Part shown: in pieces, positions 7,572 to 27,436 of the stretch
Layout: each line of letters starts with the position of its first letter
Numbering within the stretch: position 1 is the first letter of the stretch
Source of the DNA: an uncultured Gemmatimonadales bacterium
GTDB taxonomy: Bacteria > Gemmatimonadota > Gemmatimonadetes > Gemmatimonadales > GWC2-71-9
Reading direction: 5' to 3'
Assembly: GCA_963844035.1 (NCBI GenBank)
Contig: CAWJMT010000021.1
Span: forward strand, 1-27,436
Length of the DNA: 27,436 nucleotides
Notes under the pieces: generated by a model
The model's input: the letters and a program-made list of their open reading frames with translations, nothing else
Databases searched by the model: none
What the model was told of the DNA's origin: nothing
Position numbers and translations under genes: made by a program

Positions 7572-8917
7572 ATGATGGTGCGTTACGCCCTGCTCTGCAT
7601 CCTTGCTCTTGGCTTGACGGGATGTGAATCAACTGCCCCTACACAAGCCGACGTAGCGGTCGCGACCGTTCAGGTCGCGGCCGCGACGGACACCGCGACC
7701 GCGCTCGGGAGTAGCGTGCAGTTCAGCGCGCTCGTGAAGGACGCGGGCGGCAATATGCTGTCAGGCAAGACGGTGACGTGGAGCTCGACCACTCCCGCGG
7801 TAGCGGTCGTGAACGCGGGCACCGGCATGGCCACAGCGATGGCGAACGGCTGGACGAGTATCGCGGCATCGGTCGAGGGCGTGACGGGCGCGCGCACCCT
7901 CACCGTGGCGCAGAGCGTGGCGACGGTCGTCGTCACCCCCGCGACGTTCAGCGTCCCCGCCGGCACGACCCGCCAGTTCTCGGCGACCGCGCTCGACGCC
8001 AACGGCAGCGGCGTCGCCGGAATCAAGTTCCTGTGGGTGTCCTCGAACACCAACGTAGCCGTGGTCGATACCACGGGGCTCGCCCACGGGGTCGGCCGGG
8101 GCGAGGCGATCATCGCCGCCGCCGCCCGCGGGCAGCCGGGGTACGCGGTCCTGACCGTCACGGTCCCCGCCGGACGCCTGGTGGTGGCGAGTACGCTCGA
8201 CAACGCCGTCTACCTGTACGATCCGGTGACGCTCACCCGACTGTCCACGTTCACCGTGACGGCGCCCCTGTCGGCTGCCGTCGGGCCGGATGGTCGTGTC
8301 TACGCCGGCACCACCTCAGGGCAAATCGCGGCGATCAATCCCACCACGGGAGACATCGCCACGTTGGGCAGCGGCATCATCGCCGGTCCCATCTATGGCA
8401 CCGACGGTGAGCGCGAGCGGCGTGATCTACGCATCGGGATCCAGCATGCTCGAGGTCCGCACGATGGATCTGACGGGCGCGGCGCTCGGCAACATCACGT
8501 CGCCCAACGGGACGAGTCTCCGCGCGTCCACGCTGGGACCGGATGGGAGTTTCTACCTCGCGACGTTGGCCGGGGGGCCGGTGCAACGCTGGGCCGCCGG
8601 CTTCGTATACGACACGGGTGTTTGGGGGCGGCGGGCTCGACGATGCGTTCGGCATCGCGACGCGGGCGAACGGCGACGTCATCGTGACCGACCAGAACCA
8701 GCACGCCTACTTCCGGTTCAGCCGCGAGGGCGTGTTCCTCGGCAGCGTAGCGATCGACTGCACGGGACAGGTGCGTAACCTCGCCGTGGACCAGGAGGAC
8801 AACCTCTGGATCGCCTGCTACGGATCAAACGCGGTCGTGAAGTTCGACACCCGTGACCGCGAAGTGGCCCGCCTGACGGTCAACTCCCCTTCGGGAGTCG
8901 CGTTCGAGCGGCCGTAG
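7572..8917 (+). CDS. Lipoprotein with two bacterial Ig-like (Big_2-type) domains and a C-terminal beta-propeller (frameshifts near 8400 and 8617)
   Basis: Lipobox LGLTGC; WSSTTPAVAVV and WVSSNTNVAVVD Ig repeats; GPDGRVY and GPDGSFY blades continue across ORFs 7572, 8290 and 8543 to ...SGVAFERP*. Confidence 0.8.
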
Positions 8918-8919
8918 TT

Positions 8920-9055
8920 CGCGCCCTGAGAGGGAGCGCTCGCGTCTCCGGTTTTACGCGCCCTGAGAGGGCGCGCTCGGCGGGGGGTGCGCCCTTAAGG
9001 GCGCACTCGCGCTCAGCCCGGGCTCTCAGCCCGGGGAATACCGCGTGATCTAGTC
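8920..9055 (+). repeat. Three-hairpin REP/REPIN-like element, copy 1 (with an extra degenerate first hairpin at 8920-8940)
   Basis: CGCGCCCTGAGAGGGCGCG / GTGCGCCCTTAAGGGCGCAC / AGCCCGGGCTCTCAGCCCGGGGAATA; homologous to 13167, 21758 and 22842. Confidence 0.9.
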
Positions 9056-9346
9056 CCGTAGCCCCAAGCGCTCTCGTGCAGGCGATGCGGCTGGCGCATG
9101 GGAACCCAAGCGAATCGGTATCGGCCCTGCTGATCCCGGGCTGCCTAGCTTTCCGGTGTGACCCCCACGAAATCCCCGACGAGATAGTCGAACGGCCGCA
9201 CGGCACGGGCGTGATTTCCCGGGGTATGCTGGTAGCTACCCGGCCGTCTGCCGCCATCGTTCTGACGCCCCTCCTGACGCCACTCCGATTGCGAGACCGC
9301 CGCGCGTCCTGGCCTGGCTGGTTTACGCGACGATTGGTGACCCGAC

Positions 9347-11231
9347 ATGAACCGAGTCCAGCACGGCGTGTTGCTCGGCGCCGCACTCATGTCGCTCGCC
9401 GCCTGCGATGACCCTTCCGATTCGCCCAGCGAAGTGGGGTTCCCGCCGCCCACGAGTGTCATGGCGGTTCCGGGGCCGGGCGCGAACCAGATCTCCATCG
9501 CGTGGGCGAACAAGATGGGCCCTGGGTCCTACCGCGTGTATTGGAGCACCAGCCCCAACGTCGCACCGGGGAACGGTACGACAATACTTGCGGAACCCAA
9601 CAATGCTGAGGCCATCATGGGTGTGACCCACTCCGGGGTCACCGCGAACACCACCTACTACTATGTCGTGACCGCCGCCGTCGACCATGGCGCGCCGGAC
9701 GGGCCGCCCTCCAGTATGACGTCGGCCAAGGCGTCCGGTGACATGGGGCTCGATGTGCGCGTCCCAGGACCCGGGCAGTTTGTGGGTAGCCTCCTCAACG
9801 TCGTGGTCGTTGTGGAATCTCGTTTCACACTTCAGAGCGTCGTTGCGACCGTGGGCGGGCAGTCCGTGAACCTGACTTTCACTGGGACCGTTTGGGCGGG
9901 GACGATGCCGCTCGACGCCGTGCCCCCAGGGCCCGTGACGGGCACGATCGTCGCGACGGACGCGTACTCCACCGCCATCACGGGCTCCTTCGCGTTTGTG
10001 CACGGCAGTGCGCCGTCCCCCCTTACGATCACTGCGCCGGAGAGCCTCACCGTGGCTCGGCCCAACGTCCGGCTCAACGTCTCGTGCGTCGGTTGCTATG
10101 ATGTCGCCGGGTATTTGCTCTATCCGGAAGTGAGACTGCTGGCTCAAGCACCCTCAGGCTTCGATCAGACCGTCTCACTCGCGACGTGGGATGGCCATGA
10201 GGCAGTGCTGCAGTTCAACGCAAGGGATTCCACGTGGCATACCACGATCAAGCAGCGTCGGGTGTTTGTCGAGCTCAGCCCAAACCTGACCGAGGTGGCG
10301 AGTGTCCACGGTTCCATTCTAGACGTACAGCCCGACCGCATCCTGGTTCTCACGCAACCCGACAGCGTATCAACCGGCGTCTACATCCACAGCCGAGTGT
10401 CGGGCAGCGACGTGGTGGTCTACAATGCGCCCGGCCATAGCGGTGACGACCGGGTTCCTGACCCCGGTCGGAACCATGTTCCTCGAACGCACCGGGAGCG
10501 CAGGCCCGATGGTGCTGCACGAGTGGCAATCCGGCACGTTGAGCGACCTGGGGAACGCGACGGGTCTGGCGGTGAAGGGCAACTACGCCGCCTTCACGAC
10601 CGGCGCCGGGCTGATCCGCCGCGACGTGGTCACGGGCACGAACACGACCGTGAGCGCTTCCACAGGGGCGTTTGATGTCGCCGCGAACGGCGACGTGGTG
10701 TGGCAAGCGAGCGACGAGGTTTGGCGGTTTCGCGACGGCGTGACCACCCAGCTAACGAATGACGGGTCAGCATTTAGCGATAGGTCTCCGAAGACCGACG
10801 GCATAAACGTGGCGTATCTCAAGGTCACCAGCTATGGAGGTTTCACCACCGCCGTGTTCGACGCGACGGGTGAGCACATCCTCACGCCGGTCCCGCTCAG
10901 CGGGGACAAGGGCTATCGCATGGCCAACGGCTGGGTGGCCTATACGAAGTCCGTAAACGGCGACTATCAAGTGTGGAGCCGCTCTCCGGCCGGGGAGGAG
11001 CGTCACGTGGGCGCGTTCGCGGCCGGACCCACGGAGGTGCTCGATGCCCTTGGTCCGAACGGCGAGGTGACCGTGACCCTCCTCGGTGTTTACGGCGGGC
11101 GACGCTATCTCACGGTGCCCGACTACAGCGCAGCGCCGCGGGAAGTCAATTCATCCCTTGGCTCCGGGCTCTTCCAGAACGGCGGCCTCTTCGTCACCAT
11201 CGGCCGCTCGCTCTTCCAGGTGAATCCGTAG
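9347..11231 (+). CDS. Surface lipoprotein, FN3/Ig-like domains plus beta-propeller-like C-terminus, paralogue A (frameshift near 10438)
   Basis: Lipobox MSLAAC; FN3-like SYRVYWSTSP...TTYYYVVTA. ORFs 9347 and 10425 join by removing one base, judged by comparison with paralogue B. Confidence 0.8.
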
Positions 11232-11235
11232 GGAT

Positions 11236-13123
11236 ATGAACCGCACACTCCAGCACCTATTGCTCGGCGCCGCCGTCTTGGTCCTCGCCACGTGCGATGA
11301 CCCGTCCGACCCGTCCGACGCGTCACGGCCGGGCCCCCGCCGCCCACGAGCGTCACAGCGCTTCCGGGGCCGCACGCGAACGAGATCACCGTCAGGTGGG
11401 CGTCGAAGGTCGGCCCGGCGATACACGCGTCTATTGGAGTACCAGCCCCAACGTCGCACCGGGGAGTGGTACCACGATACCTGTGGACCCATACCAAGGT
11501 CCTCACGGAGTAACGTGTCGTCCACTCTGGGGTCGCGTCGAACACGACCTACTACTACGTGGTGACCGCCTCTGCGGGCGACCGCCGGTGAGGGGCCGCC
11601 CTCCAGTGTGATTTCCGCCAAGGCGTCCGGCGACATGGGACTCTCTGTCGCCAGCCCGGAGCCCGGGCAGTTTGTCAGTAGCCAACTCAGCTTGGTCGTC
11701 GGGGTGGATTCTCGCTTCACGGTTCAGAGCGTCGTTGCCACCGTGGGCGGGCAGTCCGTGAACCTGACGTACAGCGCAGGGGCTTGGAGGGGGACGATAC
11801 CGCTCGACGCCGTGCCCCCGGGGCCGGTGACGGGCACGATCGCCGCGACCGACGTGTACTCCACCGTGATCACGGGCTCATTCGCGTTTGTGCACGGCGC
11901 GACGGGCCGCTCACGCTCACGATCGCGTCGCCCGAGAGCCTCACCGTGGCGCGGCCCAACGTCCGGCTCAACGTCTCGTGCGTCGCCTACGATCTCAAGG
12001 GTTGCTATGATGTCGCCGCGTACGAGATCTCTACTTGCATAAACACGAAAGCTGGCGCAAGCCCCCTCGGGTTTCGATCAGACTGTCTCACTCGCGCAAT
12101 GTGATGGCAAACAGCCGTTGCTGCAGTTCAACGCAAGCGATTCCACGTGGCATACCACAATCAAGCGGCGCCGGGTGTTCGTCGAGCTGAGCCCCAACCT
12201 GACCGAGGTAGCGAGTGTTCACGGGTCGATCCTCGACGTACAGCCCGACCGCATCCTGGTCCTCACGCAAACCGACAGCGCATCAACCGGCGTCTCCATC
12301 CACAGCCGAGTCTCGGGCAGCGACGTGGTCATCTACAATGCGCCCGGGCACACGGTGACCACCGGGTTCCTGACCCCGGTCGGCGCCATGTTCCTCGAAC
12401 GCACCGGGAGCGCGGGCCCAACGGCCTTGCACGAGTGGCAATCGGGCACGTTGAGCGACCTGGGGAGCGCGACGGGTCTGGCGGTGAAGGGGAACTACGC
12501 CGCCTTCACGACCGGCGCCGGGTTGGTCCGCCGTGACGTCGTGACGGGCACGAACACGACCGTCAGCGCTTCCACGGGGGCGTTTGATGTCGCCGCGAAC
12601 GGCGACGTGGTGTGGCAGGCGAGCGACGAGGTCTGGCGCTTTCGCGACGGGGTGACCACCCAGCTGACGAATGACGGGTCAGCATTCGCCGACCGCTCCC
12701 CTAAGACCGACGGCATAAACGTGGCGTATCTCAAGGTTCAGGGCGGTTTCACCACTGCGGTGTTCGACACGGCGGGCGAGCACATCCTCACGCCGGTCCC
12801 GCTCAATAACGGGGACATGGCGTATCGCGTGGCCAACGGATGGGTGGCCTACACGAAGTCGGTGGCCGGCCAGTACGAGGTGTGGAGGCGCTCTCCGGCC
12901 GGTGAGGAGCGTCACGTGGGCGCGTTCACCGCGCCTGGGGAGGTGCTCGACGCCCTTGGTCCGAACGGCGAGGTGACGGTGCTCAGGACGCGACGGTATA
13001 TCGTTTTGCCCGACAACACCACAGCGCCGCGGGAAGTGAATTCCATCCCTTGGCACCGGGTTGTTCCAGAATGGCGGCCTGTTCGTCATCATTGGTCGCT
13101 CGCTCTTCCAGGTGAATCCGTAG
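11236..13123 (+). pseudogene. Tandem paralogue B of the 9347-11231 lipoprotein, multiply frameshifted
   Basis: Colinear, high DNA similarity to A from ATGAACCG to TTCCAGGTGAATCCGTAG; broken into ORFs 11236, 11297, 11608, 11784 and 12118. It is either a real pseudogene or sequencing error. Confidence 0.75.
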
Positions 13124-13166
13124 GACGCACCCGGAAGAGCATCGCGTTCGAGCGGCCGTAGGATTC

Positions 13167-13265
13167 CGCGCCCTGAGAGGGCGCGCTCGGCTGGGGCGCG
13201 CCCTTACAGGGCGCACTGGCGCCCAGCCCGGGCTCTCAGCCCGGGGAATACGACGCGATCTAGTC
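13167..13265 (+). repeat. Three-hairpin REP/REPIN-like element, copy 2
   Basis: CGCGCCCTGAGAGGGCGCG...GCGCCCTTACAGGGCGC...AGCCCGGGCTCTCAGCCCGGGGAATA...GATCTAGTC; lies between convergent genes. Confidence 0.9.
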
Positions 13266-13283
13266 GCGCCGCCTAGTCTCGCT

Positions 13284-13970
13284 TCAGTTCCGCAGCGCTC
13301 CCTGCGCCACCCAGCGCCGGATCATCCGGATCGTCTGATTCGGCAGGGGCGGAAATCCCTGAGGCATGCGGCCGCCACTGCCGCCTACCTTCGCTTGAGT
13401 CCCCTGAATCTTGTGCACCAGGTAGCTCGAATCGGGCTGCCCCGGCCGGATGAGGGTCATCTCCGAGCACTCGGCGGATGTGACCCCGACCGTCGCTACT
13501 CTGGCGCGGTACCCGGTGAGCCTCAGGCCCAGCGGTGCGCCTCCCGCCGCAGAATGGCACCCGGTGCAGGCCCCCTTCAACACCGGGGCCACGTGACGGG
13601 CGAAGCTCACCGGCTCGAGCGTGACCGTGAAATCGACGTTCGTCGCCGCCAGCTCCGTCACGGTGACGGTCCGCGGATTGGCCTCCGGGAGCGCGGTCGC
13701 TGCGGGCACGATCAGCAGCACGTCGTACGTGCCGGGCGTGACCCCCGCGAATGCGTACCGCCCGGTCGCATCGGTGAGGGTGGCTCGCAGGTCCGTGGCG
13801 CTCCCCGGACGGCGCAGCCGGACGGATGCTTCATCGAGCGCGGCGCCAGCGGTATCGCGCAGGGTGCCGACGATCGCCCCGACCGGCGGTGTGGGTGGCG
13901 TGGCCCCTCGGTAGCACGCGACCAGCACGACGCCCGCGGCGAGGGTGAGGAGTCTGGTGTTTGCGGTCAT
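13284..13970 (-). CDS. Lipoprotein: carboxypeptidase-regulatory-like domain plus c-type cytochrome domain
   Basis: Lipobox VLVAC; TDATGRYAFAGVTPGTY; heme motif CTGCH; PGQPDSSYLVHKI, RMP and IRRWVAQGA resemble planctomycete-type cytochrome c domains; RBS GAGGA before ATG 13970. Confidence 0.82.
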   Translation of the reverse strand: MTANTRLLTLAAGVVLVACYRGATPPTPPVGAIVGTLRDTAGAALDEASVRLRRPGSATDLRATLTDATGRYAFAGVTPGTYDVLLIVPAATALPEANPRTVTVTELAATNVDFTVTLEPVSFARHVAPVLKGACTGCHSAAGGAPLGLRLTGYRARVATVGVTSAECSEMTLIRPGQPDSSYLVHKIQGTQAKVGGSGGRMPQGFPPLPNQTIRMIRRWVAQGALRN

Positions 13971-13985
13971 CTGGATCCTCACGTG

Positions 13986-20458: not shown

Positions 20459-20827
20459 TCATTCGTCCCCAGCGGGGAGGTGCGACGTCAATTCGCTCAA
20501 CGCCCCCACGAACAAGGCAAGACCGACGAGGCCGAGCGCGAGCCCGATCGTTCTTCCAGCATCGACCTCCTTGATCGCGACCTGCCTGACGTCCGAGACC
20601 GCGACCTTGAATGGCCTTCCGTGGGAGACCCCTGCCAGGCTGTCGTCCCCCACGACTCGCGGCTCTTCGACAACCACGTGCGAACCGTTGGCCTGGGTCA
20701 GGCGCACGGCAGTGGGTTGCTGGGCGGAGATGATCTGCGGCGGGCTGCCCGCTTTCTGAACGTGCCACGTGGTGCACGCGGCGAGATACCAGACGAGGAG
20801 AGCACAGGCGATTGGTCGGCGCAGCAT
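20459..20827 (-). CDS. Small lipoprotein with C-terminal TM helix, paralogue X
   Basis: RBS AAGGGAG; lipobox YLAAC; C-terminal hydrophobic TIGLALGLVGLALFVG; near-duplicate at 22994-23362. Confidence 0.82.
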   Translation of the reverse strand: MLRRPIACALLVWYLAACTTWHVQKAGSPPQIISAQQPTAVRLTQANGSHVVVEEPRVVGDDSLAGVSHGRPFKVAVSDVRQVAIKEVDAGRTIGLALGLVGLALFVGALSELTSHLPAGDE

Positions 20828-21022
20828 GGGTGACTCCCTTGTGGGTTCGCCAGCAATAGACGCTCGCGCTCTCAAGCGAGAATCAAGGAAGTCCGAGCGA
20901 CTCACCCCATCGGGCTATCTACCTACTCCACCCCTCCACCGAACGAGGCATGCCTATTGAGCCCCGCCCCTTACATGTTGCAGCAGAGGCCGCTCGTACG
21001 CCATCGTCCACTGGAGGTTTCC

Positions 21023-21739: not shown

Positions 21740-21757
21740 GCCGCATTCTTGGAGCGG

Positions 21758-21807
21758 AGCCCGGGCTCTCAGCCCGGGGAATGCCGCGCGCGGAGTCGGC
21801 GCGTTCC
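21758..21807 (+). repeat. Partial copy (third hairpin and tail) of the REP-like element
   Basis: AGCCCGGGCTCTCAGCCCGGGGAAT...GAGTCGGCGCGTTCC matches the 3' half of the copy at 22842. Confidence 0.85.
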
Positions 21808-21890
21808 TGCATCTGCTCCGAGCGCGGTCTGTCGGCGAAACGGTGGATGCCCTTGCGGTGCGGGTCCGCAGGGGAAACTTATCCGCTGTC

Positions 21891-22230
21891 GTGCCCGAGC
21901 ACGTCGCTCTCTTTCGGCCCGGCACCTCTCCTCCGTCGAGCGAGCGCGGCTCTCCTCCGCGCTGCCGCCCGATCTTCTCGAGCAGGTCCGTCGCCGGGTC
22001 CGGCTCCTCGCCCTGTTCGTGGCGATTGGGTTCGCGATCGACCCCGTCTTCTCCTCCGTCGGCTACGGTGCGGCTGCCCTGCGAGCGTCCCGCTGCCGGA
22101 GGTATTCCTCGAAGCGCCTGCCGTTCCAGTGGGTCAACTTCGGCGCGGAGCGGCTCCGGTCGCCGTATGGGGACGGCTCGTCAGCCGAAGGTCACGCCTT
22201 GCCGGCTGCTCACCATCGGTCTCGTGTATC
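21891..22230 (+). pseudogene. Degenerate 5' fragment of a membrane protein (possibly the N-terminus of a membrane Ser/Thr kinase)
   Basis: Across several frames: VPEHVALFRPGTS / LSSALPPDLLEQVRRRVRLLALFVAIGFAIDP / LPFQWVNFGA / LLTIGLVY; it ends abruptly. The kinase link is from recollection; no kinase domain is present. Confidence 0.5.
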
Positions 22231-22758
22231 GTAGTCCCGTCGCCGAGCTGGCTGGAGCTATTTGAGCCCCAGCAATAGGCGGCACCCACGGCCGTGAGCC
22301 GCAGGTGTGCGAGCCGCCGGCGCTCATGCTGGTGACGTCAGCGTGCGGCAACGAGGCACTCGTCGCCCCGGTGCGCCCCACCGCGCTCGCGGCGAGCCTG
22401 TAACCGCTGCCCGGCCGGTCGATCCGCAGTTGTTGAACGTGGCGATCCCCCGGGCCGCCACGACGGTCAGCGTGCCCGCGAGGGTCCCCGCGACCAGGTT
22501 TGCCCCGAGCGCGAGCGTCACCGCGTCCGTCGCCGTCGTCAGCGTGTTGCCCGCGCTGTCCTGCACCGCTACCTGGACCGCGGGAGCGATCTGCTCTGCA
22601 CCCGGGGCGCTCGTCGGCTGCACCAGGAAGGTCAACTTGGTCAGCGGGGCTACCGGTGCTGGTTGAGCCGGAGGTTGAGCCGGAGCGGTTTCCTCGCTAC
22701 AGCCGATAATGGCCGCAGCCAGGACGAACAGCAGATGGCGTGTGTTACTGGGAGTCAT
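22228..22758 (-). pseudogene. Truncated Ig-like/RCC1-repeat lipoprotein
   Basis: ATG 22758, lipobox IIGC, LTFLVQPTS...VQVAVQDSAGN...GIATFNN, then after frameshifts SAGGSHTCG(L)TAVGAAYCWGSNSSSQLGDGTT, which is one RCC1 repeat only. Confidence 0.78.
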
Positions 22759-22841
22759 TCGCAAACAGATATGTGCCCCATCCTGCGAGGCGTCAATGGT
22801 GCCGGTTGCGCGGTCGATGGATGAGGCAGGTGAGCCGTTTT

Positions 22842-22953
22842 CGCGCCCTGAGAAGGCGCGCTCGGCCGGGGGTGCGCCCTTACAGGGCGCACAATCAACG
22901 CCGAGCCCGGGCTTCAGCCCGGGGAATACCGCGTCCCGAGTCGGCGCATTCCC
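22842..22953 (+). repeat. Three-hairpin REP/REPIN-like element, third full copy
   Basis: CGCGCCCTGAGAAGGCGCG...GTGCGCCCTTACAGGGCGCAC...AGCCCGGGCTTCAGCCCGGGGAATACCGCGT. Confidence 0.9.
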
Positions 22954-22993
22954 GGAATTGCCTCCGAGAACCATAGGACTCATAGGTCCTCCT

Positions 22994-23362
22994 TTAGTTG
23001 CCGTTCTGCGTCGTTTCGCCCAAGGCCGCGGCGTACACGACAAGGAATAGCGGGACGCAGATGCCGAGCGCTAGTCCGATCGTTTTGCCTGCGTCGACCT
23101 TCTTGACCGCGACCTGCGTGACGTCCGAGACCGCGACGGCGTTAGAGGACACTCCGTTGTGGAAGCCCGCCAGGCTGTCGCCCCCGACGACTCGCGGCTG
23201 TTCGACAACCACGTGCGAACCGTTGGCCCGGGTCAGGCGCACGGCTGTGGGGTGCGTGGTAGAGATGAGCTGCGACGGGCTGACGCCCTTCTCAACGTGC
23301 CACGTGGTGCACGCGGCGAGATACCAGAGGAGGAACGCAGAGGCGATTGGTCGGCGACGCAT
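22994..23362 (-). CDS. Small lipoprotein with C-terminal TM helix, paralogue X'
   Basis: RRPIA...WYLAACTTWHV...VRLTRANGSHVVVEQPRVVG...DAGKTIGLALG, colinear with 20459-20827. Confidence 0.82.
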   Translation of the reverse strand: MRRRPIASAFLLWYLAACTTWHVEKGVSPSQLISTTHPTAVRLTRANGSHVVVEQPRVVGGDSLAGFHNGVSSNAVAVSDVTQVAVKKVDAGKTIGLALGICVPLFLVVYAAALGETTQNGN

Positions 23363-23394
23363 GGTCAACTCCCTTGTGGGTTCTCTCAGTTGCC

Positions 23395-23516
23395 GGCGAG
23401 CGGTAGGTGTGTGCGACCCGTATCGACGCGCCCGGCAGGAGCTCCCCTTCCTGCTGCCCGACGAGCACGGCGAGGGGAGCCGAAACGACGATCGCGGTCA
23501 GGAACCCTGTGCGCAT
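23395..23516 (-). pseudogene. 5' remnant of an exported protein gene
   Basis: Strong RBS AAGGAGGA, then MRTGFLTAIVVSAPLAVLVG/QQEGELLPGASIRV; plausible coding ends after about 40 codons, at the leader of X'. Confidence 0.5.
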
Positions 23517-23920
23517 ACGTTCCTCCTTTAGGGATGGCCGGAAATAGGCGCTCGAGCCCTCAAGCGAGAATCAAGCGAGCCAGAAATGCTGTGTTATCGC
23601 TCAGATAGGACGGCGCGACCACAGGTCGGCGATCGCGGATTCGGGGAGGCGTCGGAGCGGAGGCGTCAGAGCGAAGGAGCGAGGGCCGGCATGGCCATCG
23701 AGGGCCATCGCCAACACCGACAACACTACTGGTTGGTACAGTCCGCCGCCAACTGACTGCGCGGCAGCAAGGCGCCCCCCGGTGTCGATTGAACGCGGTG
23801 GCCGCGGTCCCTCATGAAGAACATGAAGAAGAGCCGCGCCGGCCCTTCCTTGACAGTCTGCCAACCGCCCGCAGTTTAGCCCTGCCCGACACGAGCACCC
23901 TCAAGCCGGGAGATCCAACC

Positions 23921-24612: not shown

Positions 24613-24617
24613 TCGCC

Positions 24618-25778
24618 CTACTGCGGCGTGATGCGATACACCTGCCCGCTCGAGCGCGTGACGTAAATCTCGCCGCGCGCGTCCTCGCCGAACGACGTGA
24701 GTCCCCCCGCCACCCCGAAGTCGGCCGTGTGATCGATGAGGTCCGTCACGGTGCCGCCCTGCATGCGGAGGCTGCGGATCCAGCCGGCGCAGTACTCGCC
24801 GAAAAAGTAGCGGCCGGCGAGATCGGGGTATCGGGTCCCGCGGTAGACATAGCCGCCCGTGATCGAGCAGTTGGCATTGTTCGAACCGTGGCTGTACTCG
24901 TAGACGGGGAGAATGAGGCCGGCCATTGGGCAGGAATTGCCCGAGGGATAGCAGTGCGCCCCCTCCATCGTGTTCCAGCCGTAGTTGCGTCCGCCCGGGT
25001 CCCCGGCACTCGCGAAGTTGAGCTCTTCCCAGGCGTTCTGTCCCACGTCGCCGATGTAGAGGTCGTGGGTCATCCGGTCGAACGAAAACCGCCACGGGTT
25101 CCGCAGCCCATAGGCCCATACCTCCGGCGCCGCCGGCGGCCGGCCGACGAACGGATTGCTCGCCGGAATCGCGTACGGTGGCGCGCCGTTCACGTCGATG
25201 CGCAGGATCTTTCCCAGGAGCACCGTGCTGTCTTGCCCGTTGTCGTCGGGATCGCCGCCGCCACCCCCATCCCCGGTACCGATGTAGAGGTAGCCGTCGG
25301 GTCCGAACGTCACCAACCCGCCGTTGTGGTTGCTGTTCGCGGCATGCGGAATACTCAAGAGCACCTGGCCGGAGGTCGCGTCGCCGACGTTGGGGTTCGC
25401 CGAGATGTGATAGCGAGCCACGGTGAGTGCGCCGTTGGACGCCGTGTAGTCGACGTAGAAGAACCCGTTGCTCGCGTAGTTGGGATCGAAGGCGAGGCTC
25501 AGCAAGCCGCGCTCGCCGCCGGTGCTGATGATCCCGGAGAGATTCAGGAACAGCGTCGGGAGCAGCGTGTCGCGGCGCACCACGCGAATCGCGCCGCTCT
25601 GCTGTACGACGAAGATCCGGTTCGTGTCGCCCGGCGGCGCCGTGACGTACAGCGCCGAGTTCAAGCCCGATGCCACCTGGGTGAGGGAGAGGGTGGGCGC
25701 GGACGGCGTGTCGTCACCGCACGCGACGAGCGTCGCAACACCGGCTGCGAGGAGCAGCGTCCCGATCGGTCGTCTCAT
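24618..25778 (-). CDS. PQQ-dependent sugar dehydrogenase (GSDH family) lipoprotein
   Basis: Lipobox TLVAC; ERGLLSLAFDP, NHNGG, FGPDGYLYIGTGDGG, GLRNPWRFSFD, SFGEDARGE; AAGGTGAG upstream of ATG 25778. Confidence 0.92.
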   Translation of the reverse strand: MRRPIGTLLLAAGVATLVACGDDTPSAPTLSLTQVASGLNSALYVTAPPGDTNRIFVVQQSGAIRVVRRDTLLPTLFLNLSGIISTGGERGLLSLAFDPNYASNGFFYVDYTASNGALTVARYHISANPNVGDATSGQVLLSIPHAANSNHNGGLVTFGPDGYLYIGTGDGGGGGDPDDNGQDSTVLLGKILRIDVNGAPPYAIPASNPFVGRPPAAPEVWAYGLRNPWRFSFDRMTHDLYIGDVGQNAWEELNFASAGDPGGRNYGWNTMEGAHCYPSGNSCPMAGLILPVYEYSHGSNNANCSITGGYVYRGTRYPDLAGRYFFGEYCAGWIRSLRMQGGTVTDLIDHTADFGVAGGLTSFGEDARGEIYVTRSSGQVYRITPQ

Positions 25779-25791
25779 GCGATGACTCACC

Positions 25792-27436
25792 TTACTGGGG
25801 TGCAATGCGGTAGACCTCGCCGTTTCCCCGAGTGATGTACAGCTCGCCCCGCGTGTTCTCCCCGAACGACGTGAGGCCGGGAAGCAACGCGAACTCCGTG
25901 TGCGACACGAGGTCGGTCGCGACTCCAGCGACCATCCTGAGACTGCGCACCCGGCCGACGCAGTAGTCGGCGAAGAAATACCGCCCGAGGAGCGAAGGAT
26001 TCCGCGTGCCGCGGTACACGTAGCCTCCGGTGATGGAACAGTTCCCCGATGCATGGCTGTACTCGTACACCGGCAAGACCAGTCCGGTCATGACACAACC
26101 CGTTGCGGGGGCGTAGCAGTGGAGCCCTTCCATCGTATTCCAGCCGTAGTTGTGCCCACCCAGGTCCCCTGCGGAAGCGAAATCGATCTCCTCATACGCG
26201 ACCTGCCCGACGTCCCCGATGTAGAAGTCCCCGGTGACGCGATCAAACGAGAACCGCCACGGATTGCGCATGCCGTAGGCCCACACCTCGGGAGCCGCGG
26301 GTGGACGGCCGACGAACGGATTGCTCGGTGGAATCGCGTAGGGGAACGCGCCGTTCACGTCGATGCGCAGGATCTTCCCCAGCAGCACGGTGCTGTCCTG
26401 GCCGTTCCCGTCCGGATCGCCGCCGCCCCCGCCGTCGCCGGTGCCGATGTAGAGGTAGCCGTCCGGCCCGAACGTCACCAACCCGCCGTTGTGGTTGCTG
26501 TTCGCGGCATGCGGGATACTGAGCAGCACCTGGCCCGAGGCCGCGTCGCCGACGTTGATATTCGCGGAGACGTGATAGCGGGCGACGGTGAGGGCGCCGT
26601 CCGGAGCGGTGTAGTCGACGTAGAAGTAGCCGTTGCTGGCATAGTTGGGATGGAAGGCGAGGCTCAGCAGGCCACGTTCACCGCCGTAGCTGATGATCCC
26701 GGAGAGATCCAGGAACGGCGGCGTGAGCAGCGAATCGCGGAACACCACGCGAATAACGCCGCTCTGCTGCACGACGAAGACCCGGTTCGTGTCCCCCGGC
26801 GACGCGGTCACGTACAGGGCGGAGGTGAGGCCCGACGCGATGAGCGTGAGGCCGGGAGTGCCCGTGGCGGTCGCGGTGAACGAGAGGACCGGGAGCGCGC
26901 CCACGGTCGCTCGCGCGGTCTGACTGCCGGTGGTCTGGCCGAGTGTCCAGGTGGTTTGCGCCTGCCCCGATGCATTCGTCGTAGCGGATGCGCTCCCGGT
27001 GCTCCCCGATCCGGCTGTCGCGGCGAATCCCACGGTCACGCCCGCGACGGCATGCCCGGTCGCATCGTTCACCTGCACGACGAGCGGCTGCGGGAGCGTC
27101 TGGCCCGCGGTGTCGGTCTGCGCGTCCCCCGAGACCTTGATCAGCTGCGCGGCCGCCTGCGCCACCGCCACGGTCACGCTCGCGGTGAGGCTCTCCGACT
27201 TGGCCGTGACTTGCGCGCTGCCGTTGGCGACGGCCGTCGCGAGGCCGGTGGCGGTGACGCTGACGACGGCGGCGGTGCTCGTGGACCATGCGATGGGGGC
27301 ATTCGCCAGCGTATCGCCGTTCTGGTCTTTCACCGAGGCCGTGAGCTGTTGCGAGGCACCGATGGCGGTGAGTGAAACCGTCGAGGAGGGGGTGATCGCG
27401 ATCGTGGTGGCTACGCGCGCGGGGTCGGGGACCACC
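25792..27436 (-). CDS. PQQ-dependent sugar dehydrogenase with N-terminal Ig-like domains (5' end outside the window)
   Basis: Big_2-like WSTSTAAVVSV and SGDAQTDTAGQTLPQPLVVQV domains, then the same GSDH motifs; frame is open to the window edge. Confidence 0.92.
   Translation of the reverse strand, partial: VVPDPARVATTIAITPSSTVSLTAIGASQQLTASVKDQNGDTLANAPIAWSTSTAAVVSVTATGLATAVANGSAQVTAKSESLTASVTVAVAQAAAQLIKVSGDAQTDTAGQTLPQPLVVQVNDATGHAVAGVTVGFAATAGSGSTGSASATTNASGQAQTTWTLGQTTGSQTARATVGALPVLSFTATATGTPGLTLIASGLTSALYVTASPGDTNRVFVVQQSGVIRVVFRDSLLTPPFLDLSGIISYGGERGLLSLAFHPNYASNGYFYVDYTAPDGALTVARYHVSANINVGDAASGQVLLSIPHAANSNHNGGLVTFGPDGYLYIGTGDGGGGGDPDGNGQDSTVLLGKILRIDVNGAFPYAIPPSNPFVGRPPAAPEVWAYGMRNPWRFSFDRVTGDFYIGDVGQVAYEEIDFASAGDLGGHNYGWNTMEGLHCYAPATGCVMTGLVLPVYEYSHASGNCSITGGYVYRGTRNPSLLGRYFFADYCVGRVRSLRMVAGVATDLVSHTEFALLPGLTSFGENTRGELYITRGNGEVYRIAPQ

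Follow-up and report, generated by a model that had tools for sequence, protein, structure and literature searches.

Two lipoprotein genes inserted at the end of an Ig-like gene

How did two neighbouring genes for predicted surface lipoproteins come to lie between two copies of another gene's last bases, each followed by the same hairpin-rich repeat? This question is raised by a 27,436-nucleotide stretch of DNA from an uncultured Gemmatimonadales bacterium (GCA_963844035.1, CAWJMT010000021.1; the window), which is the whole of contig C21 of genome G000 (39 contigs, 84% complete). The two genes, A and B, are an insertion that related strains lack, and the bracket around them is likely the footprint of a Y1/HUH enzyme. 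It is probably a larger-cargo version of the known behaviour of repetitive extragenic palindromic (REP) repeats and not a new cassette-swapping system. Below, C-numbers denote contigs of G000, L-numbers GTDB loci with the repeat and X-numbers sequencing runs.

All features of the bracket lie on the forward strand. The gene whose stop codon was the insertion target (7572..8917) encodes a predicted lipoprotein with Pfam matches to an immunoglobulin (Ig)-like domain (Big_2) and an NHL/SGL-type propeller; its orthologue on C5 is intact (450 aa). The final 20 bases of this gene (8898..8917, ...AFERP stop), identical in the C5 orthologue, recur as a non-coding copy at 13142..13161. The first-pass annotation of this DNA had called this recurrence exact, and it is: the 20-mer occurs at these two places only, and a search allowing up to three mismatches gave two matches versus 0.01 expected, a number that 0 of 100 shuffles reached. 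A scan of JGI metagenomes for the 20-mer returned one chance match, in an unrelated gene. Between the copies lie gene A (9347..11231), a predicted lipoprotein gene with a weak fibronectin type III-like N-terminal match and one frameshift, and gene B (11236..13123), a tandem paralogue with 82% DNA identity to A and several frameshifts. The C-terminal stop of B ends at 13123, which places the second 20-mer 18 bp beyond it, as had been annotated. These 18 bp (13124..13141) form a unique junction, with no significant match in the genome and loci searched.

Mapping of the hairpins at both places bore out the statement that each 20-mer precedes a three-hairpin element ending in the 9-base tail GATCTAGTC. 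The first REP-like copy (8954..9040) has hairpins H1, H2 and H3 at 8958-8974, 8987-9006 and 9017-9035, followed by the tail at 9047..9055; the second (13162..13250) has them at 13168-13184, 13196-13216 and 13227-13245, with the tail at 13257..13265. Identity between the hairpin copies is 89.6% over 106 nt, and in single-stranded DNA folding both are far more stable than shuffled sequences (z -4.5 and -6.2). The two sides of the bracket are not exactly alike: after the left 20-mer come an extra, truncated H1 (8918..8942) and a short spacer, after the right one only six bases. The tail had been described as exclusive to these two copies. This holds among 102 REP 3' flanks, where the two window copies are the only ones with it; the 9-mer itself is present once more, on C35 of the genome. 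Within the Ig gene, a perfect 5-bp hairpin (8884-8897) ends exactly at the start of the duplicated 20-mer; no similar hairpin was obvious at other duplication junctions, and its position may be due to chance.

The window (1-27436) has a diverged orthologue at G000:C5:193728-210998, 86-94% identical over long aligned blocks. Because C5 holds this orthologous region as well as a second set of the window's same four tRNAs, we infer that C21 and C5 represent two sister lineages binned together. The bin mixes these lineages although its contamination score is 3%. A, B and the Ig gene all contain frameshifts in the window assembly. As the two frameshifts in the Ig gene are missing from the C5 orthologue and from relatives' contigs, they are probably long-read sequencing errors.

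That A and B entered at the stop codon of the Ig gene, as had been suggested, is seen from the empty allele of relatives. Relatives' alleles were collected from six of seven sequencing runs that had small shares (0.05-0.09) and did not contain the window strain, counting only long bridging contigs. A 386-base contig from X4 spans 8762-8914 and 13274-13506 with zero letters between them, and the same joint is found in X1; both runs belong to one study, and their soil strains have approximately 90-95% similarity to the window. At the right boundary, TAG (13274..13276) can be assigned to either side of the empty-site joint 8914/13274, and the last five bases of the first tail equal the first five of the empty-site side (13274-13278). 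In the empty allele the Ig stop is joined directly to a convergent, cytochrome-like gene that lies downstream of the bracket in the window (13284..13982, reverse strand), with a carboxypeptidase-regulatory-like domain and a CXXCH motif. This empty site, resolved to the letter, retains the 20-mer and lacks the hairpin entirely. Compared with it, the insertion measures 4,359 bp, with both hairpin copies inside it. The single-repeat site that had been predicted was not seen in these contigs, although such an allele may exist in other strains.

Gene content at the locus varies among strains, in agreement with the annotation's expectation of different cargo. On C5, the Ig gene leads directly to a VOC gene and then to a unit of repeat and transposase gene (tnpA). 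Contigs from X2 join an A-type gene end to the start of the VOC gene (joint 11232/15064, with no more than approximately 70 unplaced bases) or to that of a ThuA gene (joint 11231/15494), and an X5 contig carries a repeat 35 bases past the VOC end. Gene modules form a variable array at this locus, in which A-type genes can lack a downstream repeat. Homologues of A were found in 5 of 250 genomes (the one in G004 is intact, with 691 aa and a weak fn3 match) and VOC homologues in 4 of 200, with no synteny to the window around either in the DNA compared. The homologue loci contained a single, diverged hairpin, which lies approximately 4 kb from an A-like fragment. Searches of 6 genomes of the same genus and 400 of the family turned up no close orthologue of the Ig gene. 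In five other genomes, homologues of A and B do not have the repeat beside them; A and B are therefore not dedicated cassettes.

A REP-like repeat linked to a Y1/HUH transposase

The three-hairpin unit is approximately 90 bp long and has 10 full copies in G000. It was matched in 6 of 60 relatives, three of them strongly, and an exact 22-base pattern was found in 102 GTDB stretches, mostly from Gemmatimonadota (titled Gemmatimonadales or Gemmatimonadetes). The repeat was found neither in viral contigs (pattern search) nor in plasmids (blastn). In H2, one base pair covaries, a sign of selection on the hairpin: it is C-G in 87, T-A in 28 and mismatched in 6 of 121 copies. The invariance of H1 is built into the search pattern, and the pattern for H3 covariation matched only three copies. 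Base counts in 134 5' and 102 3' flanks revealed no GT[AG]G foot, and flank base counts revealed no CnGA foot. A GTAG target rule was rejected: although GTAG terminates several of the duplicated gene ends, TGA is the stop in many other genes next to the repeat, and the flanks share no motif. Judged by its sequence, the repeat is a low-copy REP-like element that would work like a REP or REPIN with its transposase, while lacking the canonical motifs.

The gene with which the repeat is associated is an IS200-like Y1/HUH tnpA (PF01797, above the cut-off), located between two repeats at C5:200388-200730. Repeats flank the gene on both sides, all antisense to it, at 9 of 12 distinct tnpA loci; the other three comprise two short loci and one with the strict pattern on one side. 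Among 101 GTDB loci, tnpA occurs at 11 distinct places, and solo copies of the repeat outnumber it, G000 having a single cognate gene for its 10 full copies. As the hairpin is a REP-like repeat tied to such a transposase, which is a known kind of system, the annotation's repeat-guided cassette system is not supported.

The transposase is a core-only protein of 131 aa with 481 homologues; the L121/G002 gene is an intact member of the clade. In an alignment of 29 of the 120 homologues listed, H54 and Y113 are invariant, H52 and Q117 nearly invariant and W93 conserved; the catalytic consensus of these 29 is YVRxQxxRHP. The motifs are NHVH, WA and YxxxQxxRH. The protein scores below the cut-offs of two NCBIfam models, NF047646 (29.4 bits versus 80) and NF033573 (40.8 bits versus 55), and the closest solved structures, among PDB sequences, are IS200/IS605 transposases. 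By its motifs, which mix those of class 1 and class 3, the clade appears to fit none of the published TnpA-Y1 classes tested. Three more Y1 genes are each flanked by their own, different hairpin repeats (G000:C23:11530-11877, C5:185867-186082 and C23:33741-33962); several repeat-transposase pairs therefore coexist in one bin.

Duplicated flanks beside other repeat copies

The idea that other copies of the repeat also stand beside duplicated DNA is supported. Exact matches of at least 15 bases within 7 kb were found for 21 of 110 5' flanks, compared to 11 of 550 random windows. Counted by cluster, 18 of 98 repeat clusters had such a match versus 13 of 337 control gene ends. Pruning of five matches left 13, located at eight sites, with the controls unpruned; removed were L086 (another repeat family), L114 (a chance 15-mer), L129 (an internal gene repeat), an uninspected C4 match at +7013 and the match due to A/B paralogy, while L136 was kept on inspection.

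The duplications take several forms. At L100 an 18-bp gene end is repeated around a repeat doublet, at L107 a 73-bp gene start and a 40-bp piece are repeated around a whole tnpA unit, L136 has a short target duplication, and on C5 the end of the VOC gene is present three times with repeats. At L122 and L100/L134, whole paralogues are each followed by a repeat. Cargo other than a transposase lies between flank-plus-repeat units at L079, L145, C4 and 21.8-22.8 kb of the window. The paralogue arrays at L134 (a metagenome-assembled genome of Eisenbacteria) and L122 consist of genes whose products look secreted, and the one at L134 ends in a repeat-tnpA unit.

Comparison with described systems

Variable modules at one locus, hairpin repeats between them and a duplicated gene end are also features of integron cassettes and att elements. 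Integron attC sites carry the boxes RYYYAAC ... GTTRRRY. In agreement with the annotation, which had proposed a system without attC sites or a local recombinase, neither strand has such boxes at 8880-9080 or 13120-13300, and recombinase profiles match on C3, C4 and C10 and not on C21 or C5. A further difference is that the one empty allele seen here lacks the repeat.

The closest parallels are found among REP repeats. In Pseudomonas fluorescens SBW25, REPIN clusters show the same direct units with an unrepeated spacer, and the repeats lie in clusters next to their Y1 transposase gene (PMC3116915, PMC3337134). Each tandem unit there consists of a 5' flank, the repeat and a shorter 3' flank, in direct orientation and with unrepeated DNA between units, an arrangement whose mechanism is called unexplained in that paper (Bertels & Rainey 2011, PMC3116915). 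Here, in contrast to the short spacer of SBW25, the spacer is 4.1 kb long and contains two genes, the 5' flank is a 20-bp gene end, the tail has 9 bp, there are approximately 10 copies per genome and the transposase is IS200-like. The REP/BIME elements of E. coli and their TnpA-REP (the REPtron) resemble our repeat in that hairpin repeats flank a single Y1 gene and solo copies are intergenic (PMC3333891, PMC8266576). Proposals for that system include cleavage at a distance, amplification in tandem and the capture of genes or their fragments (codA-cynR) (Ton-Hoang et al. 2012, PMC3333891; Corneloup et al. 2021, PMC8266576). Unlike the REPtron, the repeat described here has no GTAG foot, a three-hairpin unit of approximately 90 bp and direct orientation on both sides of tnpA. 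Its enzyme has Y-x-x-x-Q instead of the Y-x-x-x-NP of REPtron class 2 and scores under the NF047646 cut-off.

Among transposases, subclass 1.1 of IS200/IS605 shares HUH and Y-x-x-x-Q with our core-only 131-aa protein (PMC6006769). However, G000 (84% complete) has one cognate gene and not several near-identical ones, the protein is under the NF033573 cut-off, and the target is duplicated (20 bp, with 18 bp at L100 and 73 bp at L107). Subclass 1.2 has DH[IV]H, WQ and Y-x-x-x-Q-x-x-HH, and is said to be without REPs (PMC6006769), whereas NHVH, WA, YxxxQxxRH and repeats are present here. Our clade shares NHVH and W[TA] with class 3, in which atypical hairpins lie on either side of the genes (Quentin et al. 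2018, PMC6006769). Class 3 is set apart by Y-x-x-x-x-Q, a core of approximately 155 aa and a CnGA foot (PMC6006769), compared to Y-x-x-x-Q, 131 aa in total and no CnGA in our case. The bracket thus works like a REPIN/BIME cluster, and its membership in the GTAG-REP/RAYT, IS200, subclass 1.2, class 3, integron or att-element families is unsupported. It differs from the described cases in that its cargo is kilobases long, its flank is a gene end and its enzyme is IS200-like. In the literature searched, mostly open-access main texts, we found, among the matches listed, no description of this repeat family (the supplements of PMC3333891 and PMC6006769 may bear on this) and no relevant paper on four 13-base hairpin motifs.

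Origin of the bracket

From the observed insertion, empty allele, repeat-transposase link and recurring duplications, we infer an order of events and a role for the enzyme. The reading that we favour, at about even odds, is that nicking by the transposase beside the hairpin duplicated the gene end as A and B entered. The enzyme is predicted to nick single-stranded DNA beside the hairpin, which would duplicate the DNA between nick and hairpin. A repeat copy with its GATCTAGTC tail would have landed at the Ig stop, probably by local spread from a repeat-tnpA-repeat unit such as the one kept by the sister lineage approximately 0.5-1.3 kb away. The gene would then have been nicked 20 bases before its end, and copying primed by the 3'-OH, together with strand transfer, would have produced two units of gene end, repeat and tail, between which A and B would have been joined in the same event or later. 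The gene end would stay whole because it is duplicated and not rebuilt by a recombinase. Steps of this kind have precedents: TnpA-REP cuts 5' or 3' of a REP, also at a distance, and carries out strand transfer (PMC8266576), and a rolling-circle-like, 3'-OH-primed amplification has been proposed that adds a unit and can capture gene fragments (PMC3333891). Host recombination between the repeats of approximately 150 bp could, hypothetically, delete A and B passively.

Several observations weigh against this model. The intermediate with a single repeat is missing from the relatives' contigs. Comparison of the duplication junctions revealed no shared cut motif, 80 of the 98 repeat clusters have no duplication, and the flank counts are non-independent and include the whole-paralogue arrays (L122, L100/L134). 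At L079, L145 and C4, the shared flank may be part of the element and not a captured target, because it partly equals a further hairpin. The C5 copy of tnpA has a frameshift. As this gene is on C5, and hence in the co-binned sister lineage, the window's own organism is only a putative carrier. The activity of this transposase clade is a prediction, and IS200/IS605 transposition is described as proceeding without target duplication (PMC3333891).

Could the bracket instead be a mosaic of two strains? A donor carrying Ig-repeat-A-B would have recombined within the Ig gene of a recipient carrying Ig-repeat-cytochrome, and the far end would have been joined illegitimately, 20 bases before the stop. 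Homology-facilitated illegitimate recombination is the mechanism behind this explanation, in which each repeat copy derives from a different strain and the bracket can arise without a transposase cut. We regard it as unlikely, while taking it seriously: the window is the union of alleles seen separately (Ig-cytochrome, and an A-type gene before VOC or ThuA), the repeat copies differ by approximately 10% and have different 5' spacers, and contigs of three runs break at 8760. The last 153 bp of the Ig gene also differ from the X strain at 15 sites versus 52 in the other 1181 bp (Fisher p 0.009), but this signal is weak, as p becomes 0.27 when any window is allowed, and the polarity relative to C5 is unchanged (7:6 versus 12:12). 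The Ig-repeat-A donor allele was not seen, and a mosaic leaves the cargo-free short duplications at L100, L107, L136 and C5 unexplained. Alternatively, a circle with the gene end, repeat, A and B could recombine in and out at the repeat in an att-like manner, regenerating the gene end. The geometry fits a single-crossover integration with an exact 20-mer, other cargo lies between the flank-plus-repeat units named above, and the 20-mer falls within a 37-bp run that is the longest stretch of identity shared by the Ig genes of C21 and C5, which are 76% identical (p about 0.03, with further runs of 34 and 30 bp). However, the sole empty allele seen has no repeat, and the at most 70 or so unplaced bases between the A-type gene and VOC are too few for a gene end plus repeat. 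The tyrosine recombinase profile (PF00589) matched only on C3, C4 and C10, and neither the PF00239 resolvase nor the IS110 family (PF02371) was found in the 84%-complete genome. Together with the A/B homologues that lack the repeat in five genomes, and the repeat's absence from the viral contigs and plasmids searched, this makes a reversible cassette improbable.

A tandem duplication of the Ig gene and its repeat, with the second copy mostly replaced by A and B, was the counter-explanation that the annotation had named. Whole-paralogue arrays with a repeat after each member (L122, L100/L134) and several tandem paralogue pairs in the window are in keeping with such a relic. Only 20 exact bases with a sharp edge are present, however; the preceding 18 bases do not match the Ig gene significantly, the searches yielded no further Ig remnant and a relative with two Ig genes was not seen. 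We consider this slightly less probable still than the reversible cassette. An assembly artefact that fused the alleles of two strains at the repeat is very improbable. The bin is mixed, indel errors are frequent and the sequencing runs do not contain the window strain (best share 0.09), but the copies differ by approximately 10%, their spacers are distinct, the hairpin repeat does not extend over the junction 13141/13142 and the same architecture occurs in independently assembled genomes.

The transposase model can be extended, speculatively, beyond this locus. An IS200-like Y1 clade of Gemmatimonadota might use the three-hairpin repeat as a portable entry point, inserting repeat-led DNA of up to several kb at gene ends, with long target duplications of variable length (18 to over 70 bp) through which the target gene stays whole, and so build strain-variable surface-protein arrays without integrase or attC. 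We hold this extension to be doubtful. If true, a domesticated HUH transposase would gain a concrete role in gene capture. The spread of REPs, tandem units with shared flanks and the host benefit of domesticated Y1 transposases are treated as open questions in PMC8266576 and PMC3337134. If driven by the enzyme, cargo capture would provide a common soil lineage with a route to accessory surface genes; otherwise, the bracket would be an ordinary repeat at a recombination hot spot. As the repeat family offers filled and empty alleles, junctions at base level and a 131-aa candidate enzyme, the nick-and-copy model gives exact, testable predictions.

Further features of the window and the repeat loci

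The window contains a second bracket on the forward strand. Its left part (21754..21822) consists of H3 and a tail of approximately 45 bp, and its right part (22839..22968), approximately 1.1 kb downstream, of a full third REP-like copy and the same tail. The resulting direct repeat is 21754-21822 / 22900-22968, of which C5 holds one copy while lacking 21808-23842. Relative to C5, 21754-23842 is an insertion of approximately 2 kb with gene fragments and a paralogue of the lipoprotein gene at 20459-20905. An Rfam scan of the window identified four tRNAs and nothing else; further paralogue pairs are located near this tRNA cluster (24613-26850; 20459-20905 / 22994-23368).

A second conserved motif, with two hairpins in a row, is present at L079:7108-7170, L145:9437-9507 and 9812-9881, C4 near 409500 and L136. 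It recurs near the repeat and near odd tRNAs, and could be a small RNA or a terminator. These tRNA genes stand beside the repeat at L002:5328-5415 (G000:C4) and L145:9563-9647, with a partial one in L136. They have a long variable arm and a body that looks Leu-like, but their anticodons, in the two genomes concerned, are CAC (Val) and CGC (Ala); were these tRNAs charged with leucine, Val or Ala codons would be misread. They are reminiscent of allo-tRNAs, though their fold looks canonical 7/5. A duplicated tRNA 3' half is found approximately 0.8 kb away on C4.

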